This document shows, piece after piece, positions 15,386-40,954 of a DNA stretch of 64,000 nt. The translations under genes were made by a program, and so were the position numbers. The notes under the pieces are model-generated. The model ran no database searches. It was not told the origin of the DNA and worked only from the letters and a program-made list of their open reading frames with translations. Position 1 is the stretch's first letter; each line of letters opens with the position of its first letter. The DNA is from Thermoplasmata archaeon (GTDB taxonomy: Archaea > Thermoplasmatota > Thermoplasmata > RBG-16-68-12 > JAJISG01), in contig JBHIBO010000003.1 in assembly GCA_046759185.1 (NCBI GenBank), forward strand, positions 18,865 to 82,864, written 5' to 3'.

Positions 15386-15985
15386 TTGGGGGGGTGGTTT
15401 ATAGACCGGCCGGGGGAGTTCAAGGTGGCTGTCGACGTAGTTTTGGCTTTGCAGGCAACTGTCCTCATGTTTTACGGAGTGAATTTCTTCGTCCTGGGGA
15501 TGGTCCTGCTGGGGTACGGGGAATTGAAGGACGCGGGTCCGATCTTCCTTGCCGCTGGGGGGATAAACGGGATCATCGCCCTCGTCCTCTTCAACGAGCA
15601 GTTCGCGGCCGGGTCGGGGACTTTCGTCATCGTCGCTTTCCTCCTGCTCGTCTTTGCGATCACGTGGCTCGCCGCAGGAACCGTCGCGATCATGGGCGCC
15701 GGCGCCAAACCCATTGGCAGCCTGGGCATATTCTTCGGGCTGGCCATGATCCCCTTCGCTGTGTTCCTCGTCCAGGGACAGGACGTGCCCAGCTGGGGAT
15801 GGCTGACGATCAACGTGGTTTCGTGGATTTGGGTGTTCTTTACCCTGCCACTCGCCTTCGTGTTCAACGTAATCAGCGCGAAGGTCGCGGGCTGGAGCTT
15901 CATCATCCAGGCGTTCTACACCCTCTGGATTCCGGCGGCTCTGCTGATGGCGGGCGTCGTCGCCCCCCCTCTGCTAGGGATCTGA
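15386..15985 (+). CDS. polytopic membrane protein (about 6 TM, 199 aa), family unassigned
   Basis: Strongly hydrophobic ORF with GG/AG-rich helices. It sits between the two acs genes. Only a weak resemblance to YaaH/SatP was seen (VAGWSFI vs FAGWIGL), and the NPAPLGL signature is absent. Confidence 0.6.
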   Translation: MGGWFIDRPGEFKVAVDVVLALQATVLMFYGVNFFVLGMVLLGYGELKDAGPIFLAAGGINGIIALVLFNEQFAAGSGTFVIVAFLLLVFAITWLAAGTVAIMGAGAKPIGSLGIFFGLAMIPFAVFLVQGQDVPSWGWLTINVVSWIWVFFTLPLAFVFNVISAKVAGWSFIIQAFYTLWIPAALLMAGVVAPPLLGI

Positions 15986-16220
15986 AGCTTCGGATTCCGT
16001 AAGACGGCGGCCCCGCGGCACTGAATGCGCTCGCCCGGAAGCATGACGCTCCCCCCTTCCACTCCAGGGTCACCCGCGGTCCTCCAGGAGGCCCGTCATA
16101 GCTAAATAACGGCGCTAGTTCCTCGAAGGGCATCCACGGGCGAGCGTGGGCGTCGTCACCGTCACGCTTTGCGGGCCTATGGGCACCAAGCACGGGGGAC
16201 ACCACGAGAGGAGCGGAAGC

Positions 16221-21032: not shown

Positions 21033-21071
21033 AGATATTTGCTACACGCCAGCCCTGGGGGAAGGAGCTTG

Positions 21072-21947
21072 ATGCCTGCAAGGTTTGACTACTATGCGCC
21101 TACCTCGCTCAGCGAGGCTGTCGAGCTTTTGGAACGCCACGACGACAAGGCGAGGGTCCTGGCTGGGGGCCAGAGCCTCGTCCCCCTGATGAAGCTCCGG
21201 GTCGGCGAGCCGCTCGGCGTTCTCGTTGATCTCAATCGAATCGAAGACCTGGGATACGTGAAGGAGGAGGATGGTGCCCTCCGCATCGGGGCCCTGGCAC
21301 GCCATCGTGACTTGGAAAACTCGGACATCATCCAAGGTCGTTACCCCCTACTGGCCGACGCCGCGGGGACCATCGGCGACCTCCAGATCCGCAACCTAGG
21401 AACCCCCGCCGGGTCCTTGGCCCATGCCGACCCCGCCTCCGACTGGGGAGCGGCCTTCCTGGCGTTTGAGAGCGAGGTCACCGCCACCTCTGCAAAGGGG
21501 GTTCGGACCATCTCGCTGGATGACTTCTTCGTGGACACCTTCGCCACCGCCTTGGAGCCCGGCGAGGTTCTCACGGAGATTCGGGTTCCCTCTGTAGGGA
21601 ACGGTTCCGGCGGAAGCTATCAGAAGCTCAAGAGGAAGGCGGGGGACTTCGCCACCGTCGGAGTGGCCGCACAGCTGCAGCTCGATGGGGGTGGGACTGT
21701 GAGCCAGGCGAGACTTGCCCTGACGGCGGTGGGAGCGACGCCCTTCCGCGCCCAGGATGGGGAGGACCGCCTGCGGGACGGTCCGGCGGACGAGGCGGCC
21801 GTGGCCGAGGCGGCCGGCCTGGCGGCCCAGGCGGCCGAGCCCACAGACGATCTCCGAGGATCCTCGGAATACAAGCGGGCCATGGTGGAGGTCTTCACCC
21901 GGCGTGCGTTGGAGACCGCGCTGGAAAGGGCGAGAGGAGGATCCTGA
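21072..21947 (+). CDS. Mo-hydroxylase FAD-binding medium subunit (CoxM-like), form-II cluster
   Basis: MPARFDYYAPTSLSEAVELLE...AGGQSLVPLMKLR. This is the FAD-binding PCMH domain. GGAGG RBS lies before the ATG. Confidence 0.85.
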   Translation: MPARFDYYAPTSLSEAVELLERHDDKARVLAGGQSLVPLMKLRVGEPLGVLVDLNRIEDLGYVKEEDGALRIGALARHRDLENSDIIQGRYPLLADAAGTIGDLQIRNLGTPAGSLAHADPASDWGAAFLAFESEVTATSAKGVRTISLDDFFVDTFATALEPGEVLTEIRVPSVGNGSGGSYQKLKRKAGDFATVGVAAQLQLDGGGTVSQARLALTAVGATPFRAQDGEDRLRDGPADEAAVAEAAGLAAQAAEPTDDLRGSSEYKRAMVEVFTRRALETALERARGGS

Positions 21948-21990
21948 TTATGAGCGAAGAGTTTCTTGGCTGGACTGGGAGGGAGAGGTG

Positions 21991-22476
21991 ATGGAGGGAG
22001 AACCGAAGCTGCATCACGTCGCGCTGACCGTAAATGACGAGCGCCGCGAGGGAGACGTCGAGGCCCGTGTCCTACTGGTGGACTTCCTGCGCGACCAGCT
22101 GCGTCTCACGGGCGCCCACGTCGGCTGCGACACAGGCCACTGCGGGGCGTGCACCGTGGTCGTAAACGGTCGCGCGATCAAGGCCTGTTCCATGTTCGCC
22201 GTCCAGGCCGACGGCGCTGAGGTGCTCACCATCGAAGGCCTGGCCTCCGACGGGGAGCTGCATCCGCTTCAGAGGTCCTTCTCGGAGCACCACGGGTTGC
22301 AGTGTGGCTTCTGCACGCCCGGCCTCATCATGACGGCCTACGAACTCTTGGAGCGGAATCCCGATCCCACGGAAGCACAGGTTCGCGAGGGGATATCGGG
22401 CAACATGTGTCGATGCACCGGCTATGTGAACGTCGTGAAGGCCGTCCTTGCGACGGCGGGAGCGAAGGAGGGATAA
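21991..22476 (+). CDS. Mo-hydroxylase [2Fe-2S] small subunit (CoxS-like), form-II cluster
   Basis: Both 2Fe-2S motifs are present: [11 protein letters not shown], and QCGFCTPG...CRCTGY. The ORF was trimmed to ATG at 21991. Confidence 0.85.
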
Positions 22477-22480
22477 GGCG

Positions 22481-24832
22481 ATGGCAGCAGCTGAGAAGTA
22501 CGTGGGAGCGCGTGTCCAGAGAAAAGAGGATGCCCGGTTTGTCACCGGAACGGGCAGCTACGTAGCAGACCTGGCCCTGCCGGGCATGCTCCACGCGGTC
22601 TTCCTGCGAAGCCCCTACGCCCACGCCAAGATCAAGAAGGTCGACGTCGCCGCGGCCCAAAAGCTCCCGGGGGTCGTGGAGGTCTTCACAGGGGAGGACC
22701 TGAAGGACGACATCGGTTCCACCCCCACCGCCTGGGTGATTCCCGATTCGGATTTGAAGACACCACCCTACCAAGCCCTGGCCACGGAACGGGTCCGCTA
22801 CCAGGGCGAAGCCGTGGCCGTCGTGGTGGCAGAGGATCCCGCCATCGGTGCCGATGCCATCGAGCTCATTGACGTAGACTACGAACCCCTTCCGGTGGTC
22901 GTGAACCAGGAGGAGGCCCTCAAGGAGGGAGCGCCCCAGCTCCACGAAGAGGCGCCCGGCAACCAGGCCTTCAAATGGGTCCTGCCGGGCGGGGACGTGG
23001 ACGCGGCCTTCGAGGAGGCCGACGTCGTGGTGGAGCAGCGCCTCGTCAACCAGAGGCTCCAGCCCTCGGCCATGGAGCCGCGAGCCGCCCTGGCCCAGTG
23101 GGACGAGGTGGACGAGAAGCTCACGCTGTGGGTGACCTCGCAGAACCCCCACATTCATCGTCTCATCCTGGCCGCGTTTGTCCTCGGGATTCCCGAGAAC
23201 AAACTTCGAGTCATCGCCCCGGACGTGGGAGGCGGCTTTGGGAGCAAGATCCCGATCTACCCATGGGAAGCCGTCGTATCTCATCTCGCCAGAAAGTTGG
23301 GCCGCCCCGTCAAGTGGGTGGAGAGCCGGACGGAGAATTACCAAGCGACGACTCACGGTCGGGACATGGTCCAGGACGTCGAGATGGCCGCAAAGAAGGA
23401 CGGTACAATCCTCGGCATCAAGATCAAGGCCTTCGCGAATATGGGGGCCTATCTGTCCACGGCCGCGCCCGGAATTCCGACGATTCTCTTCGGGTTCATT
23501 ATCAGCGGTGCCTACACCATGAAGGCCACCCATGCCGAGGTAATCGGTGTGTTCACCAACACGACCCCTACGGATGCCTACCGGGGGGCGGGCCGTCCCG
23601 AGGCCATGTTCGCGGTGGAGCGGATGGTAGACATCCTCGCCCGGAAGCTGGGCATGGACCCCGTGGAGATCCGTCGGAAGAACTTCGTTTCTCCGGACGC
23701 CTTCCCGTACCAGATTCCCACAGGCCTGACTTACGACAGCGGGAATTACCCCGGGACCCTGGCAAAGGCCCTGAAGATCTTGGACTACGACGCATTCCGA
23801 GAGGAGCAGGCGAAGGCGCGCGAGGAGGGCCGTCTCCTTGGCATCGGTTTCTCCACCTACCTGGAGTTGTGCGGCTTGGCCCCCTCTCCGGTTTCCACCG
23901 GCACCGGTTTCCAGGGAGGCCTCTGGGGCAGCTCCGTCTGTCGGATGCTTCCCACGGGCAAGGTCTCCGTATTCACAGGGGCGCACCCCCACGGGCAGGG
24001 AGAGGAGACAACCTTCGCCCAGATCGCCGCGGACGAGCTCGGCGTGCCCGTGGAGGACGTGGAAATCGTCCACGGGGACACGGACATGACCCCCATGGGC
24101 ATGGGGACCTACGGCAGCCGCACGAACCCGGTTGAGGGCGGGTCGGTCGCCCTCTCGGCCCGCAAGGTGGTGGCCAAGGCGAAGAGGATCGCGGCCCACC
24201 TCTTGGAGGCGCGCACCGAAGACATGGCCTTCGAGGGGGGGAAGTTCTTCGTGAAAGGGGCCCCTGACAAGGCCAAGACCATTCAGGAAGTCGCTTTCGC
24301 GGCCTACATGGCTCAGAGCATGCCCGAAGGGGTGGAGCCCATTCTGGAGGCCACCACCTTCTACGATCCCACGAACTTCGTCTATCCCTTTGGTGCCCAC
24401 ATCTGCACGGTGGAGGTGGACTCCGAGACCGGCGAGGTGGAGATCCTACGATACGTGGCCGTGGACGACTGCGGGACGATCATCAACCCCATGATCGTGG
24501 AGGGCCAGGTCCACGGGGGCGTTCTCCAAGGCGTGGCCCAGGCCCTCTGGGAGGAAGCCCGCTACGACGAGGACGGGAACCTGCTGACTGGCAGTTTCAC
24601 GGAATACCTGGTGCCCACGGCGCTGGAGAGTCCGAAGATCGAGACGGACCATACGGTCACGCCGTCCCCGCACAACCCCCTGGGGGCGAAGGGCATCGGC
24701 GAGACGGGAACCATCGCCTCGTCCGAGGCCGTCATCAACGCCATCGTGGACGCCCTGGAGCCTTATGGAGTGACCCACGTAGACATGCCCGCCACCCCCG
24801 AGAAGCTGTGGCGCCTCATCCAAGAAACGTAG
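22481..24832 (+). CDS. Mo-hydroxylase large subunit, CoxL-like form II
   Basis: Trimmed to MAAAEKYVG at 22481. The active-site loop is NTTPTDAYRGAGRPEAMF (form II). Confidence 0.9.
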   Translation: MAAAEKYVGARVQRKEDARFVTGTGSYVADLALPGMLHAVFLRSPYAHAKIKKVDVAAAQKLPGVVEVFTGEDLKDDIGSTPTAWVIPDSDLKTPPYQALATERVRYQGEAVAVVVAEDPAIGADAIELIDVDYEPLPVVVNQEEALKEGAPQLHEEAPGNQAFKWVLPGGDVDAAFEEADVVVEQRLVNQRLQPSAMEPRAALAQWDEVDEKLTLWVTSQNPHIHRLILAAFVLGIPENKLRVIAPDVGGGFGSKIPIYPWEAVVSHLARKLGRPVKWVESRTENYQATTHGRDMVQDVEMAAKKDGTILGIKIKAFANMGAYLSTAAPGIPTILFGFIISGAYTMKATHAEVIGVFTNTTPTDAYRGAGRPEAMFAVERMVDILARKLGMDPVEIRRKNFVSPDAFPYQIPTGLTYDSGNYPGTLAKALKILDYDAFREEQAKAREEGRLLGIGFSTYLELCGLAPSPVSTGTGFQGGLWGSSVCRMLPTGKVSVFTGAHPHGQGEETTFAQIAADELGVPVEDVEIVHGDTDMTPMGMGTYGSRTNPVEGGSVALSARKVVAKAKRIAAHLLEARTEDMAFEGGKFFVKGAPDKAKTIQEVAFAAYMAQSMPEGVEPILEATTFYDPTNFVYPFGAHICTVEVDSETGEVEILRYVAVDDCGTIINPMIVEGQVHGGVLQGVAQALWEEARYDEDGNLLTGSFTEYLVPTALESPKIETDHTVTPSPHNPLGAKGIGETGTIASSEAVINAIVDALEPYGVTHVDMPATPEKLWRLIQET

Positions 24833-24836
24833 TTTC

Positions 24837-26099
24837 TCACCCCGTGGAGGCGCCGCTCACGTCTCCCTCGGGACCCGTCACGCCGAGCGAAGCCACGGGC
24901 GCTCTCGGCGGTCGTGGGTACAGGGCATGGACGGGTCGTCCGAAGTAGCGGGCGTATTGATCCCGGCGTGCCAAGGCCGTCGGCGGTACCAACAGGTCCA
25001 CGTGGGGAAGGGCCTGCCTCATCCCCGCCACCTCGGCACGGAAGTCAGGACGCTCGGCGTAGGGGTTCATCCAGAGGAGAAGGAAGGCGCGGCGCCGGAG
25101 GGACGCCATCTGGTCCTCCAAGAGGTGCAGGCTGCCCACGTCCCACCCGTCGCTCAGGATGAGCACGACGGTCCGCCCGTCGACCGTGGACCCGTGGTGA
25201 CGCTGAAACTCCGCGAGGCACCGCCCGATCTGCGTGCCTCCCCCCGCATGCGCCAGCTTCTCAGACACATAGCGGACGGCCTCACGATAAGGCCGGCCGC
25301 GCAGGACGGCCGTCAGGGGCCAGAGCTCCGTGCTGAAGGCGTAGAGCCGGGCGGAGGGAATCGCTCGAAGGAGGGCGTACACGATGCCAAGGAGGAGGGG
25401 CCCGTGTCCCTCCATGCTCCCGCTCACGTCCCACAGAACGACCAAACGGGTCCGCTGTAGTTTCCGGCGATGCCGCCGGACGGCGAGCCACTCGCCCCCG
25501 GATCGGAGGCTAGCCCGTGCCGTCCGCGGGAAGTCCACGGCCCCTCGGCGGCTCGCCACGCGCCTTCGCCCCTCAACCGTCGCCGCCCACCGCCGGAATC
25601 GCCGGGCCAATCGTTTCATCGTGTCGAGCTCGCGTCGACTTGGCATCTCGAGGTCTCTGGGGCCTGGAGGCGCTTCGGGACTGTAGACGAGAAGGCGCAA
25701 GCGATCGACACTCCAGGGAACTCGATCCCGACCCGCCCGTACACGCCCGCGCTGGGTACTCCAGGCCTCCTCGACGCTGCCGGGCTGTTGGGGTACGGGA
25801 GGTCGGGCGGGTGGCGCCCTGCTTTCTCCCGGCAAGACGCCCGGCATGCCGGACCGGGACCAATACTCTTCGAAGGCGTTCTCAAAGACAGGGAAGTCTT
25901 CCGCCCGCTTGACCAAGGTCGTCCGACAGGCGAGGTAGAACTCTCGTCTCCGCAACCGGTTCACGTGGTCGAGAGCCCTCGCGAGGTCCAGCTCTTCGCC
26001 GAGCCCCACGGGCATGCCTCGTGCCCGCAGCAGGCCAAAGAACCCGGCCAGGCGGCGGGAGAGGCCGCCACCGTCCGCTGGCACCTGCCCGGTCCTCAT
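24837..26099 (-). CDS. coxE: VWA-domain CODH maturation protein CoxE
   Basis: 420 aa. The VWA MIDAS motif is LVVLWDVSGSM, and it pairs with the upstream MoxR ATPase. Confidence 0.85.
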   Translation of the reverse strand: MRTGQVPADGGGLSRRLAGFFGLLRARGMPVGLGEELDLARALDHVNRLRRREFYLACRTTLVKRAEDFPVFENAFEEYWSRSGMPGVLPGESRAPPARPPVPQQPGSVEEAWSTQRGRVRAGRDRVPWSVDRLRLLVYSPEAPPGPRDLEMPSRRELDTMKRLARRFRRWAATVEGRRRVASRRGAVDFPRTARASLRSGGEWLAVRRHRRKLQRTRLVVLWDVSGSMEGHGPLLLGIVYALLRAIPSARLYAFSTELWPLTAVLRGRPYREAVRYVSEKLAHAGGGTQIGRCLAEFQRHHGSTVDGRTVVLILSDGWDVGSLHLLEDQMASLRRRAFLLLWMNPYAERPDFRAEVAGMRQALPHVDLLVPPTALARRDQYARYFGRPVHALYPRPPRAPVASLGVTGPEGDVSGASTG

Positions 26100-27028
26100 G
26101 ACCTCAACAACAGGTCGACCTTCTCCTCGAGCAGTCGCAGGTCCTCTGCCTCTTTCGCCACAAAGCCGAGGGTCTCGAGCAGGGTCTTCTTGTCCATGTG
26201 TTCAACCCCGAGGGCGAGCAGCGCGGCCACCCAGTCCAGGGTCTCCGAGATGCCAGGTCTCTTCAGGACCTCCTCTTCCGTTCGGACGCGTTGGACAAAG
26301 GACAGGACCTCCTCGGCGAGACCCTCGTCGAGTTCCGGGACCCGACGACGGAGGATCGTGAGCTCCTTCTCCCACGAGGGGTAGTCGATGTACAGGTACA
26401 GACAGCGTCGCTTGAGGGCATCGCTCAGCTCCCGCGTCCGGTTCGACGTGATGATGACGAAGGGGACCCGCTCCGCCCGAAAGGTCCCGATTTCCGGGAT
26501 GGTCACCTGGAACTCCGAGAGGAACTCCAGGAGAAGCCCCTCGAACTCCTCGTCCGCTCGGTCGATTTCGTCGATGAGGAGGGTGGGGGGTTTGGGGCCG
26601 TCGTGGTTTAGGGCCTTAAGGAGGGGGCGCCGGAGAAGGAACTTCTCGCTGAAAATCTCCGCCTCCAGCTCCGAGGGATCCTTCTGTTTCTCCTGCAGGC
26701 GGATCGCCAGCAGTTGCTTGGGGTAGTTCCATTCGTATAGGGTGGATTCGGCATCCAAGCCCTCGTAGCACTGGAGGCGGATGAGGTCCGTGTCGAGGGC
26801 CTCGGAGAGGGCGCGGGCGATGTCCGTCTTTCCACACCCCGGTTCGCCTTCTACGAGGAGCGGCTTGCCGAGCTTCATCGAGAGGTAGACCGCCATGGCG
26901 ATCGACCGGTCGGCAACGTACTCGCTTTTCTCAAAGGCCTCAATGACCTCCTCGGGCTTGCTAAAGGGAGCTTCGTTCGCCACTTGCTGGTCCGCCATGG
27001 GTGTTCTCAGGGGTTCAGATGCTGCCAT
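26096..27028 (-). CDS. coxD: MoxR-like AAA+ ATPase CoxD
   Basis: Walker A VEGEPGCGKTD and Walker B LLIDEIDRA. It overlaps coxE by 4 nt. Confidence 0.85.
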   Translation of the reverse strand: MAASEPLRTPMADQQVANEAPFSKPEEVIEAFEKSEYVADRSIAMAVYLSMKLGKPLLVEGEPGCGKTDIARALSEALDTDLIRLQCYEGLDAESTLYEWNYPKQLLAIRLQEKQKDPSELEAEIFSEKFLLRRPLLKALNHDGPKPPTLLIDEIDRADEEFEGLLLEFLSEFQVTIPEIGTFRAERVPFVIITSNRTRELSDALKRRCLYLYIDYPSWEKELTILRRRVPELDEGLAEEVLSFVQRVRTEEEVLKRPGISETLDWVAALLALGVEHMDKKTLLETLGFVAKEAEDLRLLEEKVDLLLRS

Positions 27029-28152: not shown

Positions 28153-29361
28153 GTGGGGGAGCCCAGGAGAGGGTGGGCGGTCGCGTTCAACCGGAACGAG
28201 GTCGCTGGGGCCTTCGGCGACATCGGGACCGACCTCCCGCTCATCCTCGCCCTCATCGCGATCAACGGTCTCGACGCCACGAGTGCCTTCGTGATGTTTG
28301 GGGTTTTCCAGATACTGTCGGCCCTCCGTTACGGCCTTCCCATGCCCGTGCAGCCTCTGAAGGCCATGGCCGCCATTATGATCGCGACGGCCGCCCGTCC
28401 GGAACTTCTCTTCGGCGGAGGCCTCGTGATCGGGCTCACCATTGGCATTCTCGGCTTGACCGGTGCCATCACTCGCATTCATGCCCTCCTCCCCGCAGGA
28501 GTTGTCCGCGGCATCCAGCTTGGCCTGGGCCTAACCCTGATGCTGGTGGCTTTCGGCTTCATTCTGGGGGATCCGGGCGCCCCTCTGCCAGACCGCATTC
28601 CTGGGATGATCGCCGCCTTTGTCGGGATCCTTGCCGTCCTCTTCCTCGGGCGGAGCACCCGATTCCCCCCTGCCCTCCTCCTCATCGTCGGCGGAATCGG
28701 CCTGGCGGCCTTCCAGGGCCTGGACTTTGGTGCCCTGGCGGGGGGCATCGGGTTTCGGCTGCCGGTGCTCTATCTTCCCGAGTTTCTTGCCGATCTGATC
28801 CCCGGGGCTCGCGTCCTCAGCCTCAATGACATCGCTGAAGGGGGACTCGTACTGGCGCTCCCCCAGATTCCACTCTCCATCGCCAACTCCATCATCGCCA
28901 CGGCCTTCCTGGTGCGGGACTACTTCCCGCGGAGGACAGAGATTACGCCCCGCCGCATCTCCCTCACCTACGCGGCCATGAACCTGACGGGCCCCTTCTT
29001 CGGCGCCATCCCGGCCTGCCATGGTTCGGGGGGATTGGCCGGCCACCACCGGTTTGGCGCCCGGACGGGGGGCTCCGTGATCATCTACGGCACCATCTTC
29101 CTGGTCCTGGGGCTCTTTTTCGGAGGCGTCATCTTCGAGGCGGTCAAGGTCTTCCCCTTCCCGGTTCTGGGAGCCCTTCTGCTCTTCGAAGGGTTCGCCC
29201 TCACGAAACTCGTCACAAAGGTGAAGGACAGTCGACCCGACCTCCTCGTCGCCCTACTGGTCGGGGTGCTGGTCATCGGCGTGCCCTTTGGCTTCGTCGT
29301 GGGCATCCTCGGAGGGACGGCCGTCTACTTCCTCTTGGTTCGAAAGCGGATCTTCTTGTGA
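28153..29361 (+). CDS. MOT1-family (MFS-type) molybdate transporter
   Basis: Polytopic membrane protein. It carries the two MOT1 signature blocks PMPVQPLKAMAAIMIA and FGAIPACHGSGGLAGHHRFGARTGG. It is divergent from moaA, with a TATA-like CTTTAATAG just upstream (GTG start, likely leaderless). Confidence 0.7.
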   Translation: MGEPRRGWAVAFNRNEVAGAFGDIGTDLPLILALIAINGLDATSAFVMFGVFQILSALRYGLPMPVQPLKAMAAIMIATAARPELLFGGGLVIGLTIGILGLTGAITRIHALLPAGVVRGIQLGLGLTLMLVAFGFILGDPGAPLPDRIPGMIAAFVGILAVLFLGRSTRFPPALLLIVGGIGLAAFQGLDFGALAGGIGFRLPVLYLPEFLADLIPGARVLSLNDIAEGGLVLALPQIPLSIANSIIATAFLVRDYFPRRTEITPRRISLTYAAMNLTGPFFGAIPACHGSGGLAGHHRFGARTGGSVIIYGTIFLVLGLFFGGVIFEAVKVFPFPVLGALLLFEGFALTKLVTKVKDSRPDLLVALLVGVLVIGVPFGFVVGILGGTAVYFLLVRKRIFL

Positions 29362-29435
29362 AGCCTTCCTGGGGTCAAAGGCTTAAGGGGTTCTCGGGCT
29401 ACTCTCAAGCGTTCAGCCTACCGAGGCATCCAACC

Positions 29436-29951
29436 ATGAGTGTGGAGGAGCACAGGGCGCGGGCGCCCAAGCACCTCGCGGTCGGCGTCATCACGGCCAG
29501 CAATACGCGGACGGAGGAGACGGATGACTCGGGCCAATACGCCCAGGAGGCCCTCCGGGACGCAGGCCACAAGGTCGCCTTCTACGCGGTCGTCAGGGAC
29601 GATCCCAGGGAAATTCGGGAGGCTCTCGATGCCGCCCTCCCCCAGGCGTCGGTCGTGATCGTGAGCGGGGGCACGGGTCTCTCCCCGACGGACGTCACCA
29701 TCGAGACCATCGCCCCTCTCCTCCAGAAGGAAATCGATGGGTTCGGGGAAATCTTCCGCGCCTTGAGCTACGAAGAGATTGGCACCCCGGCGATGTTGAG
29801 TCGCGCCACCGCTGGGGTGATCGACGGGAAGCTCGTAGCCTGCTTGCCGGGCTCACCTGAGGCCGTGCGCCTGGCTATGGAAGCGCTCCTACTCCCCGAG
29901 CTAGGTCACATCGTCGAACAGATCACCAGTGGTCCCCACGGCCACCCCTAG
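29436..29951 (+). CDS. moaB: molybdopterin adenylyltransferase MogA/MoaB family
   Basis: Trimmed to MSVEEHRARAPKH. It has the GGTGLSPTDVT motif of the MoaB/MogA fold. Confidence 0.8.
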   Translation: MSVEEHRARAPKHLAVGVITASNTRTEETDDSGQYAQEALRDAGHKVAFYAVVRDDPREIREALDAALPQASVVIVSGGTGLSPTDVTIETIAPLLQKEIDGFGEIFRALSYEEIGTPAMLSRATAGVIDGKLVACLPGSPEAVRLAMEALLLPELGHIVEQITSGPHGHP

Positions 29952-29998: not shown

Positions 29999-30433
29999 TC
30001 ACTCGAAGAGGCCCCGTACACACGCGAAGAACTCCTTCACCTTCTTCTCCGCCGTGGACTCGATCATCCGAGAACCGACGCTGGCGAGCTTCCCCACGAG
30101 GCGGGCTTCTGCGTTCCATCGCATTTCGGTCCCCCGGGCCGTCTTGATGAGGACGACGACCGAGTCCACGTCTACCGCACTGCCTCGTCCCGTCCCGTGG
30201 GCCTTCAGGCGGGCCCGGGTCGGCCTGTCCTCCTCCACGAGCTGGACCGTGAAATCGAACTTGCCTTTGATGAAGGAGACTCCGGCCTTCACCACAGCCC
30301 GGAAGTGCGTGGGACTGTGCACCTCCAGGAGCTGCAGATCGGGCATACATGGCGCCAGTTTCCGGGGGTCAATGAAGGTGTCCCAAACCTCCTCTACGGG
30401 GGCTTCCACGGCGAAGGTTCCCTGGAAATCCAT
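29999..30433 (-). CDS. CoxG-like SRPBCC protein (CODH subunit G family)
   Basis: 144 aa. It is a paralog of the ORF at 35726, sharing FxGTF...KxHGxGRGSAVDVD...TARGTEMRW. Confidence 0.8.
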   Translation of the reverse strand: MDFQGTFAVEAPVEEVWDTFIDPRKLAPCMPDLQLLEVHSPTHFRAVVKAGVSFIKGKFDFTVQLVEEDRPTRARLKAHGTGRGSAVDVDSVVVLIKTARGTEMRWNAEARLVGKLASVGSRMIESTAEKKVKEFFACVRGLFE

Positions 30434-30941: not shown

Positions 30942-31802
30942 CTACCCCGGGGCCGCCTTGGGCGCCTCTGTCTTGCTCCCCTTCCCCGGAAGGCGCCTCC
31001 CGTATTTTGTGGCCACAACCTCTGCCATGATGCTCAAGGCGAGTTCCCCGGGCGTGGTCGCTCCCATGTCGATCCCGATGGGGGTGCGCACCCGGCGGAG
31101 GAACGCCTGGTCCACGCCCAGGTCGGCCAACGCCTTCATGTCGTGGGCGATGCGGTCGCGGCTGGCGAGAAGGCCCACGTACCGGACGGGCGCCTCGGCC
31201 AGGGCGGCCAGCACGGTGACGTCCCGGGCCCCCTTCGTCAGCACAACGACGGAATCCCGCTTCGTCCATTCAAACGTCGTCATATCGAACTCCATGTCCT
31301 CGATGAGGACATCGGGCTGGCTCTCCAGAACGGGCTTGTGGTCGATGACCACGACTTCCATGTCCAGGAGCTTTCCCAGCTCTACGAGGTGGTCTTCCAA
31401 TGGGTCCCGACCCCCCTCAGCCACAAGGATGAGCCGGTCGGGTGGCAGGTACGGTTCGACGTAAATCTCCATCACCCCTCCGCAATTCGTCTCCACGTGA
31501 ATCTCGTCGCGCGTCTGGTTCGTGACGGTGCCGCGAACGGCGGTTTCTACGTCCTCGAGGTAGACCTTGACGAGGCGAGGCTCCCCCGTCTCCATCGTCT
31601 CTAGCGCGACCTCGACGATGGGCCCATCGGGACAGGCTCCGCCCAGGGTTCCGAAGGCCACCTCCTGATTCTCGGAGATGATCATTTTGAATCCCGGCTT
31701 GCCGAGGGAAGAGCCCTCGACGCCCACGACGGTGGCGACGGAGAACGGCTTCCGGGCCGCCACCAGACGATTCATGTTTCGGGCGAAGCCGTACTCGTCC
31801 AT
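30942..31802 (-). CDS. XdhC/CoxF-family molybdenum-cofactor insertion chaperone
   Basis: It has the XdhC_CoxI N-terminal domain (KPFSVATVVGVEGSSLGKPGFKMII) and the XdhC Rossmann-like C-terminal domain (RLILVAEGG..., VRYVGLLASRDR). It was trimmed from 31844 to the ATG at 31802. Confidence 0.8.
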   Translation of the reverse strand: MDEYGFARNMNRLVAARKPFSVATVVGVEGSSLGKPGFKMIISENQEVAFGTLGGACPDGPIVEVALETMETGEPRLVKVYLEDVETAVRGTVTNQTRDEIHVETNCGGVMEIYVEPYLPPDRLILVAEGGRDPLEDHLVELGKLLDMEVVVIDHKPVLESQPDVLIEDMEFDMTTFEWTKRDSVVVLTKGARDVTVLAALAEAPVRYVGLLASRDRIAHDMKALADLGVDQAFLRRVRTPIGIDMGATTPGELALSIMAEVVATKYGRRLPGKGSKTEAPKAAPG

Positions 31803-31886
31803 GAGCCCCGATTCTAGCGACGGCCTCGTCTTAATCCTTTCCACCGGCCGAAAGGAGGAGGGAATTCCGAACGGTTGCTGGAAAGT

Positions 31887-31894
31887 CTTTTATC
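31887..31894 (+). promoter_or_regulatory. putative TATA box (CTTTTATC) of the form-I coxMSL operon
   Basis: AT-rich motif 41-48 nt upstream of the GTG start at 31935. The geometry matches the form-II cluster promoter. Confidence 0.4.
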
Positions 31895-31934
31895 CGAACC
31901 CCCTTTTAGGCGAGCCTCACGGGGGACAAGTATC

Positions 31935-32807
31935 GTGATTCCGCCTCAATTCGAGTATTTTGCGCCCTCTTCGGTCGATGAGGCCGTCGAGCTCTTGGAA
32001 CGATATGATGGCGAGGCCAAGGTCCTCGCCGGAGGAATGAGCCTGATCCCGATCCTCAAGCTCCGACTGGCGGAGCCTGCGGCCCTGGTGGACATCGGTC
32101 GCATCGAGGGCCTCTCGTACATACGGGAGGAGGACGGGTGGCTTCGCATCGGCGCGGGTACCGTGCTGAGCGACCTGCACGATTCGGACTTGGTGCGGGA
32201 GAAGTACCCCATCTTCCATGACGCCGCCTCGGTCATCGCCGACCCGCTGGTGGACAACATGGGCACGGTGGGAGGCAACCTCGCCCACGCCGATCCCGCC
32301 AACGACCTCCCGGCCTGCATGCTCGTCATGGGGGCCCAGGTCGTCGTCCAAGGACCGAAGGGTTCCCGGACGATTCCCGTCGGGGAGTTCTTCGTCGATA
32401 CGTTCGAGACCGCCCTTGAGGACGACGAGATCCTCACCGAGGTCCAGGTTCCCACGTCCCAGGCTCGCCAAGGGAACGCCTACATGAAGATCGAGAAGCG
32501 GGCCGGGGACTTCTCCATCGCCGCCGTGGCGGCCAACGTCGTCCTGAATGGGAACGGAACAGTGGGGAGCGCGGGGATTGGCCTCACCAATGCCGGGCCG
32601 ACCCCTTTCTTGGCGGAGGAGGCCTCGAACCACTTGGCTGGGGGGAGTCCGGATGAGGCGACTCTCGCCCGGGCGGCCGAGCTAGCGGAGGAGGCATCCA
32701 ACCCGGTTTCCGACCTCCGAGGACCCGCGGAGTACAAGCGGGCCATGGTCGGCGTCCTCACGCGCAGGACCGTAGGGAAAGCTCTCGAGCGGGCGAGAGG
32801 TGGATAG
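31935..32807 (+). CDS. coxM: CO dehydrogenase FAD-binding medium subunit
   Basis: A GTG start gives [22 protein letters not shown], the canonical CoxM N-terminus. The FAD-binding domain is conserved with the cluster at 21072. Confidence 0.85.
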
Positions 32808-33335
32808 CATGGCGGTCGCAGAGCGAGAGGCGGGCGAGGGCGGCGTCCCTCCCACGTATCCCATCACGGTTTCTGTGAATGGCACCGAATACGAGGCCAC
32901 CGTGGAGGGACGGACTCTCCTCGTCCACTTCCTTCGGGACATCCTGGGTCTCACGGGGACGCACATCGGTTGTGACACGACGAATTGCGGAGCGTGCACC
33001 GTCCTCCTCGACGGAAGGGCGGTGAAGTCGTGCACGATCCTCGCCGTCCAGGCGGACGCCCGCGAGGTGCAGACCGTGGAAGGCCTGGAGACGGACACGC
33101 TCCATCCCATTCAGGAGGCCTTCGTGGAGGAGCACGGCCTCCAGTGTGGCTTCTGCACGCCGGGGATGATGATGACGTCCGTGGCCCTCCTTGGGAAGAA
33201 TCCGAACCCGACGGAGGACGAGATCCGCCACGGCATCGCCGGGAACCTGTGCCGGTGCACGGGCTACGTGAACATCGTGAAGTCCGTCCAGTTCGCCGCG
33301 AAGAAGCTTCGAGAGGATGGCCAGGGAGGTGACGC

Positions 33336-33339
<4 letters not shown>
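32800..33339 (+). CDS. coxS: CO dehydrogenase [2Fe-2S] small subunit
   Basis: [11 protein letters not shown] and QCGFCTPG...CRCTGY motifs. The start may be at 32809 (MAVAERE). It overlaps coxM and coxL. Confidence 0.85.
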
Positions 33340-35669
<2,330 letters not shown>

Positions 35670-35725
35670 CGGCCATGCCAGGTCGCCTGAAACGCCGATT
35701 CGAAGGTCGACGGTAGGGAAGTGAG

Positions 35726-36166
35726 ATGGAGTTCGAGGGCACTTTCTCCACAACCGCGGGGATCGAGAAGGTCTGGAGCACCTTCTTTGATCCGCAGGGG
35801 ATGAAGCCCTGCGTCCCCGACTTGGAGCTCATTGAGATCTTCGACCCGATGCACCACCGGCTGGTGTTCAAGGTCGGTCTCTCCTTCATGAAGGGCAGTT
35901 TCGATGTGGACGTCAGGTTGCGGGACGTCGCCATGCCCACCCACGCCCGGGTCAAGGCCCATGGGAGGGGGCAAGGCAGCGCCGTCGACGTCGACGCCGT
36001 GGTGGACCTCGCCAAGACGGCGGACGGCACGGAGATGCGTTGGAAGGCCGATGCCCACATCGTCGGGAAGCTCGCGAACGTCGCGACCCGTCTCCTGGAT
36101 TCCACCGTGAAGAAGCGCATCAACGAATTCCTCGAATGTGGCCGCGCCCGCCTCGAAGGAGAGTAA
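35726..36166 (+). CDS. coxG: CoxG (SRPBCC) protein
   Basis: 146 aa starting MEFEGTFSTTAGIEKVWSTFFDPQG...KAHGRGQGSAVDVD. It is immediately downstream of coxL. Confidence 0.8.
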   Translation: MEFEGTFSTTAGIEKVWSTFFDPQGMKPCVPDLELIEIFDPMHHRLVFKVGLSFMKGSFDVDVRLRDVAMPTHARVKAHGRGQGSAVDVDAVVDLAKTADGTEMRWKADAHIVGKLANVATRLLDSTVKKRINEFLECGRARLEGE

Positions 36167-36202: not shown

Positions 36203-37861
36203 CTATGCGACGAACGACGCCGGTTCCTTGACGAAGCGAGTCTGGCAGCCCTCGGAGCAGAAGTAGTACGTCGATCCCTCGTGCTCGGCGTGCAAGGAGG
36301 AGGCTGGGACGACGGTCATGCCGCAGACGACGTCCATGGCCGTCTCACTCACGGCCGGAGTCGCTTGCAGGCCGGCCGAGCTCGGGACCGACCGATGACG
36401 CACCTCGGTGATCTCGGCCATGATGCTGAGGGCAATTTCCTCCTGTGTCTCGGCAGCCAGGTCGAGGCCGGCTGGGTTGCGGAGTCGTCCGAGGGCGTCC
36501 TCGCCGAGCCCCTCGTCTCGGAGGCTCTCGATCAGGGCATTCGCCCGCCGACGACTCGCCACTAGGCCCACGTAAGCCGCAGGGGAACCGAGCAGCTGAC
36601 GCACAGCCGTCTCGTCGTATCGGCCCATGGAAGCCACCACGGCGAAGGTGGAACGTGTTGCGGCCGCCGCCAACGCCTCCACGTCCCCGATGACCACATC
36701 CGCGTCTGGCTGCTTCTCCTGTGTGACTCCCAAGGCCGCGACGACCACACGGAAGCCCAAGAGGTGGCCGAGAACGGCGAGCGCCTGACCCAAGGGCGAC
36801 TCACCGACGATCAGGAGCTGGGGCGTGGGGTTGTTGGGCTCCAGGAAGATCTCCATTTCCCCACCGCTCTCGCACACCATAGGGTGTTGGGTCACTCCCT
36901 CTCGAGGAGGGGTTCTAGCCGGGTCGGGGGAGAAGCTGACGAGGCGAGGGATGCCGTCTTCCAGGGCCGTGAGGGCCTCGGCGACGACGATGGACTGGGA
37001 GCAGGCGCCGCCGATCCAGCCCGTCATCTCGCCGCCTTGCCGAATGACGGCCTTGAACCCCGGCTTCCCCGAGGTGGGTCGAACGGCACGCACGACCGTC
37101 GCGAGGACGAAGGGCTCTCCGCGTCGCCTGAGTTCCTGGGCCAGGTCCACGGGGTCGTCGGCGATCGAGCGTCCGAAGTGGGATAAACCCTGGGTGACCG
37201 CGGGCAGGTGGCCCTCACCCTCCTGATGGAGCTCCAAGGCCAAGGTCTCCAGCGCCTCCCCCTCCTCCAAATCGTGTGCGACCCGTCCAAGCTGCTCTTC
37301 CGTATCGATGTCCAGCAGGACGCCGGGATCGGGTACGGGGACCTCGACGATCTCGCCCTCGTAGTTACCGAAGATGCTACGACAGCCCCGGTCTCCCGTG
37401 ATCCCGCGTACGTCGCCGAAAACGGAGCGATCGAGGAGGACGGGATTGCCACGAACGCCTTGGAAGGTGGGGATGAGGACGGGCGCACCTGTGGCCTTCC
37501 ACTCCTTGCCCAATGTGTCGAGAGTTTCCGCCTGGAGGAAGGGCTGGTCTCCGAGCACGATCAAAACGCTCTCGGCCCCCGACGACAGGGATCGGATCCC
37601 CGCCCGGATGGAGGTGCTCATCCCCTCTGGGTAACGCTCGTTGACGACCACATTCGCGCCGTCGAGGGAGACCTCCTCGCGGATCCGGTCAGCCTCACTG
37701 CCAAGAACCACGACGACTTCCTCAGCCGAGGAGCCTTGTACGGACTCGAGCACCCGCTCGAGGAGCTTCTGCCCTCCCACCTCCAACAGCGGCTTAGGGC
37801 GCCCCATGCGCGAAGAGGTTCCAGCGGCCAGGACGATCGCGGAAATCACGTGACGATCCAC
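36203..37861 (-). CDS. tri-domain fusion: MocA-like molybdenum cofactor cytidylyltransferase + XdhC/CoxI chaperone + C-terminal YHS/TRASH metal-binding domain
   Basis: N-terminus: ISAIVLAAGTSSRMGRPKPLL (MobA/MocA NTP-transferase). Middle: PFVLATVVRAVRPTSGKPGFKAV plus QLLIVGESPLGQALAVLGHLLGFRVVV (XdhC N- and C-terminal domains). C-terminus: DVVCGMTVVPASSLHAEHEGSTYYFCSEGCQTRF (YHS). It is one uninterrupted 552-aa ORF, with a GTG start at 37861 or 37849. Confidence 0.8.
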   Translation of the reverse strand: MDRHVISAIVLAAGTSSRMGRPKPLLEVGGQKLLERVLESVQGSSAEEVVVVLGSEADRIREEVSLDGANVVVNERYPEGMSTSIRAGIRSLSSGAESVLIVLGDQPFLQAETLDTLGKEWKATGAPVLIPTFQGVRGNPVLLDRSVFGDVRGITGDRGCRSIFGNYEGEIVEVPVPDPGVLLDIDTEEQLGRVAHDLEEGEALETLALELHQEGEGHLPAVTQGLSHFGRSIADDPVDLAQELRRRGEPFVLATVVRAVRPTSGKPGFKAVIRQGGEMTGWIGGACSQSIVVAEALTALEDGIPRLVSFSPDPARTPPREGVTQHPMVCESGGEMEIFLEPNNPTPQLLIVGESPLGQALAVLGHLLGFRVVVAALGVTQEKQPDADVVIGDVEALAAAATRSTFAVVASMGRYDETAVRQLLGSPAAYVGLVASRRRANALIESLRDEGLGEDALGRLRNPAGLDLAAETQEEIALSIMAEITEVRHRSVPSSAGLQATPAVSETAMDVVCGMTVVPASSLHAEHEGSTYYFCSEGCQTRFVKEPASFVA

Positions 37862-38053: not shown

Positions 38054-39199
38054 CTACGCCGAAGCCAGCTGCGCAGGCTCTTCGCGGTCTCCGATGGGCA
38101 CGTACTCGAGGTCCATCGGCCCGATGTATTTGGCTCGGGGACGAATGAGCTTGTTGTCGGCCAGCTGCTCCATGATGTGCGCGGACCAGCCCGCGATCCG
38201 GGAGAGGGCGAAAATCGGGGTGTACAGGTCGATGGGAATGCCCAGCACGTAGTAGGTGGACGCCGAGTAGAAGTCCACGTTCGGGTTCAACCCCTTCTCC
38301 CGCATCATGACGGTCTCGATGACCTGGGAGATGTCGTACCAGCGGGTATCGCCGGCGGCCTCTCCGAGGTCCTTGACGACCTTGCTGAGTTCCTCCGCCC
38401 GGGGATCCATGGTCTTGTAGACACGATGTCCGAAGCCCATGATCCGCTCCTTCTTCGCCAGTTTGTCCAGGATGTACTGCTCGGCCTTCTCGGGGCTGCC
38501 GATCTCCTTGAGCATCTCCATGACCCGCATGTTGGCGCCCCCATGGAGGGGGCCCTTTAGCGTGCCGATGGCCGCCACCACGGCGGAGTAGACGTCCGAC
38601 AGCGTGGAGGCGGTCACTCGGCCGGAGAAGGTCGAGGCGTTGAAGCCATGGTCTGCGTGGAGGACGAGGGCCATGTCCATGACCCGCTCCGCAGTCGGGT
38701 TCGGTTTTTCCCCCCGCATCATCCACAGGAAGTTCCCAGCGTGAGCGAGGTCCATGTCCGGCTCGACGGGTTCCTTCCCGCTGCGGATTCGCACCCAGCT
38801 TGCGAGGATCGAGGCGAAGCCCGCCGTCAGGTCCAGGGAGGTCTCGATCTGTTCCTCCTTGGACGGCGCCTCCTTCTGTCCCCCCATGTTCCCCAGGCTG
38901 GACACCGCGGTCCGCAGGACATCCATGGGATGGGCTTTCTTCGGCCAGTGGCTCATGCAGTCGAGAAGCCCTTCAGGCAGCGGCCGGTGCTCCGCCAAGC
39001 GTTTGGAGAAGTCGTCCAACTGATGCTTCGTGGGGAGGTACCCGTTCCACAGGAGGTAGACGGTCTCCTCGAAGGTTGAGTTCTTTGCGAGGTCGTGGAT
39101 GTCATAGCCTTGGTAGACCAGGAGTCCCTTCTCTCCGTCGACGAACGAGTTGCGCGACTCGTCGATGACGATTCCTGCCAGTCCTTTGGCGATCTCCAT
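38054..39199 (-). CDS. citZ: citrate synthase
   Basis: Trimmed to MEIAKGLAGIVIDESR at 39199. The catalytic-region motifs are GFGHRVYKTMDPRA and HADHGFNASTF. The size is typical of archaeal/Gram-positive-type citrate synthase. Confidence 0.9.
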   Translation of the reverse strand: MEIAKGLAGIVIDESRNSFVDGEKGLLVYQGYDIHDLAKNSTFEETVYLLWNGYLPTKHQLDDFSKRLAEHRPLPEGLLDCMSHWPKKAHPMDVLRTAVSSLGNMGGQKEAPSKEEQIETSLDLTAGFASILASWVRIRSGKEPVEPDMDLAHAGNFLWMMRGEKPNPTAERVMDMALVLHADHGFNASTFSGRVTASTLSDVYSAVVAAIGTLKGPLHGGANMRVMEMLKEIGSPEKAEQYILDKLAKKERIMGFGHRVYKTMDPRAEELSKVVKDLGEAAGDTRWYDISQVIETVMMREKGLNPNVDFYSASTYYVLGIPIDLYTPIFALSRIAGWSAHIMEQLADNKLIRPRAKYIGPMDLEYVPIGDREEPAQLASA

Positions 39200-39387
39200 C
39201 TGCCACCAGCTCACTGGCCCCCCAGGGGGGCCCGGGACAACGAGCCAGGTGAGGCTACATGGACCTTTGGAATGTAGAATAAGCATGCGACACGCGCCGG
39301 GGAAGCGTCTGTTCCTGACGGGGGGCTAGCCGACGGAGGACCCCGGTTCATTCTGCGTCTGGGCGGAGGAGCACAACGCGGTCGTCT

Positions 39388-39700: not shown

Positions 39701-40897
39701 TCAGTCCGGCGGGGAAAACACCACCTGATTCTTCTCCAATGCGGTGATTTCGTGCGCTTTCATTCCCGCCTCGGCGAGGATTTCTCTTGTGTGTTCCCCC
39801 TTCGTCGGCGGAGCCCTCTCCGTCCCGGCGCGCCAGGTGGAGGCCAGTGCCGGGAAGGCGAGCTGCCGGACAGCCCCCAGGGACGGGTGTTGGAAGGTTT
39901 GAACCACGCCCCGATGCTTGATCTGAGGATCGGCGAAGACCTCACGGAGGTCCTGCACGGGAGCCGCGGGGACCCCCGCCTGTTCGAGACGAATAAGCCA
40001 CTCATCCCTGCCCCGCTCTTGAAACCGATCAGCCAGACGCTGGACCAGGCTCTCGCGATGGACCACCCGCAGCTCATTGGTGGCATAATCCGCATGCTCG
40101 GCGAGATCCCCCAAGCCAAGAGCGTCACACAAACCTCGCCAGAACCGGTCGTTGGCGGCGGCCACCACGATGGGGTCATCGGCCGTGGGGAAGGCCTGAT
40201 ACGGCACGATGTGGGGATGGGCCGAGCCCAATCTGCCTGGCGGGTGGCCCTCCAGGAAATACGCCTGGGCCATGTACGTCAGCCAGGACACCTGGCCGTC
40301 GAGAATCGAGACATCGAGGTACGAACCTTCTCCGGTCCGGTCCCGCTTCCAGAGGGAGGCGAGGATGGCGAGGGCCGCGTGGAGCCCCGCACCGATGTCG
40401 GCGATGGCGACCCCCACGCGAATGGGAGGCCGCCCCGCCTCTCCAGTGATGCTCATGAACCCGCCTAGGGCCTGGAGGATGAGGTCAAAGGACGGGCGGT
40501 TCCGGTACGGGCCGTCCTGACCGTAGCCGCTGATGGAACAGTAGACCACGTCCTCCTTCCACCCCTTGACGTCCTCATAGCCCATTCCCAGGCGCTCCGC
40601 CACGCCTGGGCGGAAGTTCTCGAGAACCACGTCGCAACTGGGGACCATGCTTCGGAGGATCTGGAGCCCCTCCTCCTGGTGGAGATCCACGCACAAGCTG
40701 CGTTTGTTGCGATTCACGCTAAGATAATAGCCGCTCACTTCCCGAAGGAAGGGCGGTCCCCACGCCCGCGTGAGGTCCCCCTCGGGGGGTTCCACCTTGA
40801 TGATATCGGCCCCCAGGTCCCCGAGGACCATGGAGCAGAAGGGGCCGGCCAGCACGCGTGAGAGGTCGAGGACCCGGATGCCTGCGAGTGGACCCAT
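39701..40897 (-). CDS. CoA-transferase family III (CaiB/BaiF-like)
   Basis: Trimmed to MGPLAGIRVLDLSRVLAGPFCSMVLGDLGADIIKVEPP, the family III N-terminal hallmark. The catalytic Asp region is GVAIADIGAGLHA. Confidence 0.85.
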   Translation of the reverse strand: MGPLAGIRVLDLSRVLAGPFCSMVLGDLGADIIKVEPPEGDLTRAWGPPFLREVSGYYLSVNRNKRSLCVDLHQEEGLQILRSMVPSCDVVLENFRPGVAERLGMGYEDVKGWKEDVVYCSISGYGQDGPYRNRPSFDLILQALGGFMSITGEAGRPPIRVGVAIADIGAGLHAALAILASLWKRDRTGEGSYLDVSILDGQVSWLTYMAQAYFLEGHPPGRLGSAHPHIVPYQAFPTADDPIVVAAANDRFWRGLCDALGLGDLAEHADYATNELRVVHRESLVQRLADRFQERGRDEWLIRLEQAGVPAAPVQDLREVFADPQIKHRGVVQTFQHPSLGAVRQLAFPALASTWRAGTERAPPTKGEHTREILAEAGMKAHEITALEKNQVVFSPPD

Positions 40898-40954
40898 GCG
40901 GGCGCCAACTCCCGGGAGGGCATAAGGGCGACGAGGGAGCACTCCCGCACAACG

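Follow-up and report, generated by a model that had tools for sequence, protein, structure and literature searches.

The locus and the fusion gene

The stretch of DNA analyzed here, a window of 64,000 nucleotides from contig JBHIBO010000003.1 of a Thermoplasmata archaeon (assembly GCA_046759185.1, positions 18,865 to 82,864 of the forward strand), encodes a form-I Mo-Cu CO dehydrogenase (CODH) and, convergent to its coxMSLG operon, a single protein that combines a MocA-like nucleotidyltransferase, an XdhC module and a C-terminal YHS domain (Table 1). An earlier reading of the letters and their open reading frames (ORFs), hereafter the original prediction, had described this gene as three normally separate functions in one uninterrupted 552-aa ORF and had quoted from it the motifs LAAGTSSRMGRPKPLL and VCGMTVV...YYFCSEGCQTRF. 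Both motifs are found in the translation, the minus-strand frame is free of internal stops while the plus-strand reading is interrupted by them, and the four Pfam domains that had been proposed for checking, NTP_transf_3, XdhC_CoxI, XdhC_C and YHS, all score above their gathering cut-offs (GA), including the tail, which passes the YHS model with 37.2 bits against 30.3. The copper-ligating AYRCSFR loop attributed to the adjacent coxL is likewise present. The gene is convergent to coxMSLG as described, and the distance from the coxG stop at 36166 to the stop codon of the fusion at 36203 is 36 bp instead of the 37 bp given earlier.

A protein from a metagenome-assembled genome labeled 'Thermoplasmata archaeon' (P0001) is 100% identical to the fusion protein; at 548 aa, it starts with the GTG at 37849, four codons later. 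Of the 120 best-matching 90%-identity clusters in the database, 116 show the same four-domain order; chance and misassembly were both considered as the origin of the single ORF and ruled out on this count.

Table 1. Positions of the fusion gene, its parts and the surrounding genes in the window (Moco, molybdenum cofactor; XDH, xanthine dehydrogenase; pLDDT, predicted local distance difference test)
Feature	Position	Strand	Remarks
Lone XDH-family large subunit	9357-11681	+	Loop AYRGAGR; no obvious medium or small subunit genes adjoining
Three AMP-forming acyl/acetyl-CoA synthetase paralogues in a row	12572-19758	+	
Form-II-like coxMSL, complete set	21039-24832	+	Loop AYRGAGR
coxE-like VWA protein	24837-26099	-	Expected CoxF partner
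coxD-like AAA+ ATPase	26096-27028	-	Expected CoxF partner
moaA	27075-28052	-	Moco supply
MOT1-family (MFS) molybdate transporter	28153-29361	+	Moco supply
moaB/mog-like gene	29358-29951	+	Moco supply
Second coxG-like (SRPBCC) gene	29999-30433	-	Pfam COXG 108 bits; between moaB and the free XdhC
Second XdhC paralogue, free-standing	30942-31844	-	300 aa; no YHS; divergent from coxM; non-CoxF clade
Form-I Mo-Cu CO dehydrogenase operon	31875-36166	+	Order coxM-coxS-coxL-coxG; AYRCSFR in coxL
coxM	31875-32807	+	Fusion neighbour
coxS	32800-33339	+	Fusion neighbour
coxL	33336-35669	+	Fusion neighbour
coxG	35726-36166	+	Fusion neighbour
Whole fusion gene	36203-37861	-	552 codons from GTG 37861; stop codon 36203-36205
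YHS/TRASH-type putative metal-binding domain	36209-36334	-	Residues 510-551; Pfam YHS (PF04945) 37.2 bits (GA 30.3)
Linker 2	36347-36385	-	About residues 493-505; predicted disordered, AlphaFold2 pLDDT <50
XdhC Rossmann domain (XdhC_C)	36410-36817	-	Residues 349-484; Pfam 96.7 bits (GA 29.7)
XdhC_CoxI N-terminal domain of the CoxF-type module	36932-37129	-	Residues 245-310; Pfam 63.5 bits (GA 24.3); invariant Cys287
Linker 1	37160-37213	-	About residues 217-234; predicted disordered, AlphaFold2 pLDDT <50
MocA-like nucleotidyltransferase domain	37361-37840	-	Residues 8-167; folded module about 1-215; NTP_transf_3 (PF12804) 141 bits (GA 27)
Citrate synthase	38054-39286	-	Flanks the fusion gene
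Family III CoA-transferase	39701-40942	-	Flanks the fusion gene

Relationship of the XdhC module to CoxF

The middle of the protein holds both domains of the XdhC family and matches the structures 2WE7 and 2WE8 in Foldseek searches. Against the cox cluster of Oligotropha carboxidovorans, with sequences taken from plasmid pHCG3, it shows 42% identity to CoxF in an alignment of 262 aa (E 4e-58 in a four-sequence database) and only 25% to CoxI; the free-standing XdhC of the window reaches 30% identity to CoxF. In a neighbour-joining tree of 122 XdhC modules, one clade unites O. carboxidovorans CoxF with all YHS-bearing XdhC proteins, that of the window among them, and the free-standing Thermoplasmata and acidobacterial paralogues are its sister clades; CoxI, Escherichia coli PaoD and a second XdhC of Natronorubrum fall outside it. 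This agrees with a review of XdhC chaperones, in which CoxF groups with the XdhC homologues of putative CODH operons and CoxI with PaoD (PMC2997495). Gene order points in the same direction: Paraburkholderia aromaticivorans and about 25 acidobacterial loci have the XdhC-YHS gene directly behind coxE in the order coxM-coxS-coxL-(coxG)-coxD-coxE, which is the slot of coxF in the O. carboxidovorans cluster coxMSLDEFG.

On these sequence comparisons, the XdhC module is an orthologue of CoxF, which mutants of O. carboxidovorans single out among the XdhC paralogues as linked to the insertion of copper. In that organism, coxE and coxF mutants make a CODH that is folded, Moco-containing, partly sulfurated and copper-free (PMC4240915). 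Since the module groups with CoxF, whose mutants yield the copper-free enzyme, it represents an accessory protein of the Cox system that is already known, here in a new fusion. The original prediction had taken this part for an XdhC/CoxI chaperone of the generic Moco hand-off type; both Pfam domains of that family are there, and the type is instead that of CoxF. An identity as CoxI or as a generic XdhC was considered separately and rejected, given the 25% identity to CoxI and the placement outside the CoxI clade.

Pelzmann et al. proposed CoxF as a copper escort and suspected its copper site in the motif M107CPSHGTM (PMC4240915). The counterpart in the fusion is the loop M328-V-C330-E-S332-G-G-E-M336, just upstream of the Rossmann domain; among 63 CoxF-clade sequences, 62 have the Cys of this loop and 62 its Ser. 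The loop Cys is also found in part of the other XdhC paralogues and hence is not diagnostic of CoxF, and Cys287, the conserved GGxC cysteine, is common to all XdhC-family members compared. The C-terminal histidine-acid-phytase motif RHGxRxP that has been proposed for CoxF (RHGQRQS in O. carboxidovorans) is not conserved in the corresponding stretch of the fusion, EVRHRSVPSS.

Thus, the 280-aa CoxF of O. (Afipia) carboxidovorans OM5 shares with the fusion both XdhC domains, the Cys/Ser loop (MCPSHGTM versus MVCESGGEM) and a form-I cox cluster. However, it has neither a YHS tail nor a MocA domain, and its gene follows coxE whereas the fusion gene is convergent to coxG. XdhC of Rhodobacter capsulatus, PaoD of E. 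coli and CoxI have the two Pfam domains and the GGxC cysteine in common with the module but lie outside the CoxF clade, CoxI being only about 25% identical. These proteins handle sulfurated Moco before its insertion, whereas CoxF acts on an enzyme that already contains Moco (PMC4240915, PMC2997495).

The YHS tail

In 69 aligned triple fusions, Asp510, Cys513, Cys535 and Cys539 of the tail (ORF numbering, one higher than in the alignment) are invariant and form the pattern D-x2-C ... C-x3-C; indeed all six Cys of the fusion protein are conserved. We further examined the 150 best matches to the protein in a library of representatives at 50% identity, where F-C-x3-C is kept in 104 and the recurrent form of the tail is D-P-[VI]-C-G-M ... 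Y-[YF]-F-C-(C)-x-x-C. The fusion does not reach the cut-off of the TRASH_HVO_1752_C model (15.8 versus 27 bits), and there are weak matches of the tail to zinc-finger-like models (zf-FCS).

The tail recurs on CoxF-type proteins well beyond the Thermoplasmata. By Pfam it is found in Thermomicrobium roseum (58 bits), Natronorubrum bangense (51 bits), an acidobacterial representative (50 bits) and a Thermoanaerobaculia triple fusion (32 bits). It is also present in the CoxF of Paraburkholderia, where it was checked by the Cys motif only, and of Caballeronia, and in Acidobacteriota and Verrucomicrobiota, giving at least seven phyla overall. The proteins of T. roseum (WP_143714800), N. bangense (WP_006068000) and P. 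aromaticivorans (WP_035477365) share with the fusion the order XdhC_CoxI, XdhC_C and YHS, the form-I coxL neighbour and the clade. They differ in having no N-terminal MocA domain, mocA being a separate gene that in Paraburkholderia lies immediately downstream, and they are uncharacterised and annotated only as 'XdhC family protein'. Judging by this distribution, YHS tails are common throughout the CoxF clade and not particular to this gene; in the Alphaproteobacteria the tail is lost.

The other main context of the YHS domain is that of Cu-transporting ATPases and chaperones. In an adenylyl cyclase of Mycobacterium phlei, a YHS domain confers copper-specific activation, with an Asp and three Cys as the proposed copper ligands (PMC4626032). 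The tail of the fusion belongs to the same Pfam family as the YHS domains of this cyclase, of the Cu-transporting ATPases and of TRASH proteins and has the same Asp-plus-three-Cys pattern with a different fusion partner. By analogy to the cyclase, the XdhC-linked YHS domain may bind copper.

Linkage to form-I CO dehydrogenase

A scan of one genome per species, seeded with MocA-domain patterns and hence biased to relatives of this system, gave 80 loci, 61 of which have a YHS-bearing XdhC (triple fusion or XdhC-YHS). In 52 of these 61, a coxL with the AYxCSFR loop lies nearby, never more than 4.2 kb away and with a median distance of 1.6 kb, which strongly supports the co-occurrence with form-I coxL that the original prediction had suggested surveying. 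In a further four loci, a form-I-like coxL is cut off by the end of the contig, and in another four the flank is too short to judge. A form-II enzyme is also nearby in only three of the 61; an association of the YHS-bearing XdhC with that enzyme was rejected on this count.

An independent picture comes from PLSDB, in which the 19 records that match the T. roseum CoxF-YHS protein (E<=1e-20) are exactly the 19 with a form-I-like CoxL, defined by at least 56% identity to the window CoxL, with the next match at 42%. The YHS tail is present in six of the 19. The L049 protein, a MocA-XdhC fusion that lacks YHS, falls into the clade of the other paralogue, and no form-I coxL lies closer to it than 10 kb.

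The MocA-like module

The N-terminal third of the fusion contains the motifs AAGTSSRMG..K and GDQP. It aligns with E. coli MocA over the full length (BLASTP, 26% identity, residues 6-191), including the AAGxSxRMG and GDxP motifs, and G19, K22 and D104 (alignment numbering, ORF minus 1) are invariant or nearly so among homologues. Foldseek gives template modelling (TM) scores of 0.85-0.92 to Rv0371c-type and SSO MocA-related structures. Among NCBIfam models, the top match is the DVU_1551-family NTP transferase with 170.1 bits, below its own cut-off of 315, and the MocA equivalog TIGR03310 comes second. MocA (YgfJ) of E. coli and the Rv0371c-type proteins of mycobacterial CODH clusters (PDB 2WAW, 2WE9, 3D5N) thus share with the module the fold, the two motifs and the link to enzymes dependent on the molybdopterin cytosine dinucleotide (MCD); however, they are free-standing proteins of about 190 aa, whereas here the domain is part of a 552-aa polypeptide. 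By homology, the module most likely adds CMP to Mo-molybdopterin, thereby making MCD. The fusion is the sole MocA-like and the sole YHS sequence in the window.

Predicted structure

An AlphaFold2 model built with the 69-sequence alignment has a mean pLDDT of 85 and predicts three well-folded modules, at about residues 1-215, 234-491 and 505-551, joined by the two linkers. In the model the modules are 'beads on a string', and the flexible tether of the tail would be compatible with a swinging metal-delivery arm, though it is no proof of one. Foldseek searches against the PDB returned per-domain matches only (Rv0376c-like XdhC, Rv0371c-like MocA, GlmU), with neither a multi-domain precedent nor a match to the YHS tail, and a sequence search of the PDB likewise gave per-domain matches only.

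Spread and origin of the fusion

The full triple fusion is found in about 45 species-level genomes of Thermoplasmata (or 'Methanobacteriota'), mostly from soil and peat, as well as in two or three Thermoanaerobaculia, and at least 116 clusters at 90% identity carry it. Among the 150 representatives at 50% identity, the dominant architecture is the XdhC-YHS protein of about 310-350 aa (94), followed by reverse-order XdhC-MocA fusions without YHS (14), plain XdhC (12), MocA-plus-Rossmann proteins (10) and full MocA-XdhC-YHS fusions (4), the remaining 16 being truncated or minor architectures. Hence, the pairings CoxF-YHS and MocA-XdhC are each common, and only the triple fusion is lineage-restricted, largely to soil Thermoplasmata. 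A Thermoanaerobaculia protein (L077:4233-5594) shows a MocA-XdhC_C-YHS architecture without the XdhC N-terminal domain and with a sub-threshold YHS; downstream of it lie a full XdhC and a MoCF_biosynth-like gene.

A MocA-like gene comes immediately after coxF-YHS in Paraburkholderia and in a Chthoniobacterales genome (L064), and in T. roseum and Natronorubrum a nucleotidyltransferase gene lies in the same cluster as CoxF-YHS. Since coxF-YHS and mocA already adjoin in the cox clusters of Paraburkholderia and Chthoniobacterales, the Thermoplasmata triple fusion is most simply a merger of conserved neighbour genes.

MocA and XdhC modules have been fused independently several times (P0129, P0142, P0153, P0162, P0199, P0213, P0244, L049:7711-9381). 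The L049 protein joins MocA to a non-CoxF XdhC paralogue without YHS, and a further set consists of the reverse-order XdhC-MocA proteins of about 470-550 aa. Acidobacterial cox clusters (L056:380-1738, L057:604-1776 and about 20 more) start with a protein of about 390 aa made of MocA and the XdhC Rossmann domain without the XdhC N-terminal domain, which resembles the architecture of the NCBIfam 'DVU_1551 family NTP transferase'. Because of this additional MocA-Rossmann protein, each such cluster holds three XdhC-related genes. In a close relative (L034:9833-11988, 87% identity), the fusion gene is split into several frames and reads directly into coxS, a deletion having removed coxL, coxG and the C-terminus of the fusion; this looks like a decaying form-I locus.

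The surrounding molybdenum island

The fusion lies in a larger group of molybdenum-related genes. The CoxL of the neighbouring operon is 59% identical to that of O. carboxidovorans, and among its matches a clear gap, from 56% to 42% identity, separates form-I from non-form-I proteins. The product of this operon is the likely client enzyme of the fusion. On the other side of the operon, the free XdhC paralogue is a candidate Moco-insertion chaperone. Beyond it are the second coxG-like gene and the genes for Moco supply, followed by the coxD-like and coxE-like genes and then by the form-II-like coxMSL set; the lone XDH-family large subunit is farther off. Since the island holds coxD, coxE, the free XdhC and form-II-like enzymes, the fusion is one member of a maturation set and not self-sufficient. 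The original prediction of a compact maturation factor for the [CuSMoO2] site is thus supported as to a role in maturation, by the 52 of 61 loci and by all 19 of the 19 PLSDB records, and has to be given up as to a self-contained factor.

Other features of the island are of separate interest. The second coxG-like gene is conserved in relatives and shares about 54% identity with the coxG that follows coxL. The MOT1-family gene overlaps the start of the moaB/mog-like gene by 4 bp, a position that is kept in the relatives L002, L003 and L034; the MOT1 family is best known from plants and algae. The three synthetase paralogues, together with the citrate synthase and the CoA-transferase that flank the fusion, suggest that the island is embedded among genes of organic-acid metabolism.

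A proposed mechanism and its alternatives

We consider it probable, if far from certain, that the three modules of the fusion serve the maturation of the neighbouring form-I Mo-Cu CODH, with copper bound by the YHS tail being handed via the CoxF module to CoxL. What we build on is the domain content, the CoxF orthology, the conservation of the ligand residues and the tight linkage to form-I coxL across several phyla. From the same sequences, we infer the binding and transfer of copper, the cytidylyltransferase activity and a physical coupling or channelling between the modules. In such a scheme, the MocA module would make MCD, as its homology suggests, the free XdhC paralogue beside coxM would probably insert Moco, and CoxD, by analogy to O. 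carboxidovorans, would sulfurate the Mo site. The flexibly tethered YHS tail would bind copper through Asp510, Cys513, Cys535 and Cys539 and pass it to the CoxF module, where the conserved Cys330 loop is the candidate acceptor, and this module, together with CoxE, would then deliver Cu(I) onto the Mo-SH site of CoxL.

Several observations weigh against this scheme. The tail is absent from the CoxF of O. carboxidovorans, the sole genetically studied system, and because of this the YHS domain is to be seen as dispensable in some lineages. The CoxF-type protein of Deinococcus sp. AJ005 (L084:12586-13647) has a degenerate tail of 29.1 bits, against the cut-off of 30.3, in which the first Cys is replaced (VDGEE for VCGM) and C-x3-C has become C-x2-C; this tail may be in decay. 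YHS/TRASH domains in general need not be specific for copper. Among the 61 loci with a YHS-bearing XdhC there is one real exception, that of the Thermoanaerobaculia protein mentioned above (L077), with no XDH-family enzyme in 16 kb. The clade of CoxF and the YHS-bearing proteins has a moderate bootstrap of 71/100 in a distance tree of a 38-taxon subset. In the window, the fusion gene does not directly follow coxD-coxE as coxF does elsewhere; coxE and coxD (24837-27028, minus strand) are about 10 kb off on the other side of the cluster. The MocA domain stays below the cut-off of the TIGR03310 equivalog (163.4 versus 186.45 bits), and it may also serve the two form-II-like MCD-type enzymes of the window. 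Finally, with a predicted TM score (pTM) of 0.48, the relative placement of the modules, including that of YHS versus the XdhC pocket, is not predicted.

One alternative is a general factor for MCD synthesis and insertion that serves all three XDH-family enzymes of the window, with the YHS domain as a structural Zn/Fe knuckle that has no role in copper delivery. MocA-XdhC fusions without YHS are common and occur in several orders (MNR, NRM, MR), suggesting that MCD is channelled to XdhC-fold proteins generally, and the window has a single MocA-like domain for three Mo enzymes, one form-I and two form-II-like. The presence of Cys287 throughout the family and the weak zinc-finger-like matches of the tail are also consistent with such a factor. 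However, YHS tails occur in the CoxF clade alone and track form-I and not form-II coxL, the separate XdhC beside coxM could insert Moco, and the enzyme of the O. carboxidovorans coxF mutant keeps its Moco and is without copper (PMC4240915). We regard a general MCD factor as unlikely.

Copper could also act on the protein itself, the tail being a sensor and not a donor whose occupancy switches the CoxF and/or MocA modules and so gates maturation on the copper supply, much as copper activates the M. phlei cyclase. The sole functional study of an enzyme-fused YHS domain showed copper-specific activation and not transfer (PMC4626032), and the tail is predicted to sit on a flexible linker, as does that of the cyclase. 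Against this, an allosteric interface finds no support in a model that does not predict the inter-domain geometry (pTM 0.48), CoxF is tied genetically to the copper-insertion step itself, and the other main setting of YHS is one of copper transport and chaperoning. We regard a sensor as quite improbable.

A variant in which CoxF serves as a scaffold where the Cu-S-Mo(MCD) cluster takes shape, at least in part, before it is passed to apo-CoxL, with MCD made by the first module and held by the second and copper coming from the third, appears very doubtful; it differs from the O. carboxidovorans model, where the folded enzyme is itself the place of stepwise assembly. That an assembly error or frameshift has joined separate mocA and coxF-YHS genes into the single ORF, for which one could cite their separate neighbouring genes in Paraburkholderia and Chthoniobacterales and the metagenome-assembled source of the sequence, is already effectively refuted and has a vanishingly small chance of being right, given a continuous architecture in at least 116 independent 90%-identity clusters of 47-85% identity from many samples and assemblers, its presence in about 45 species-level genomes and a linker region that aligns across homologues without frame breaks.

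Significance

Every module of the protein comes from a known family, and the triple fusion is widespread, conserved and uncharacterised. The original prediction had allowed that the fusion might turn out to be widespread and already characterised, and of the two only the former holds. In a search that left most subscription journals outside, we found no paper in which a YHS or TRASH domain is mentioned alongside XdhC or CoxF, and, with the same limit on its reach, a search pairing YHS with carbon monoxide dehydrogenase returned nothing relevant. The view that this architecture is not a described Cox accessory protein is therefore right for the triple fusion, as far as the searchable literature goes, and has to be qualified for its CoxF part, which is an accessory protein already known.

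Aerobic CO dehydrogenase consumes atmospheric CO in soils and oceans. Its buried [CuSMoO2] site has to be supplied with copper, and whether CoxF is the donor has been a question since the mutant study of 2014, in which the proposal of CoxF as a copper escort was based on no more than the phenotypes of mutants and a weak motif in the sequence (PMC4240915). A YHS domain with an Asp and three Cys on CoxF orthologues, tracking form-I coxL, offers independent comparative support for CoxF as the copper donor. The tail provides a defined, mutable candidate copper site, with cultured and tractable carriers in Paraburkholderia, Thermomicrobium and Natronorubrum. For genes whose present labels go no further than 'NTP transferase domain-containing protein' or 'XdhC family protein', the assignment is a gain in annotation. 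The Thermoplasmata triple fusion itself, in the manner of a Rosetta stone, connects the synthesis of MCD with the copper step, and it could be a compact part for the heterologous production of active Mo-Cu CODH.

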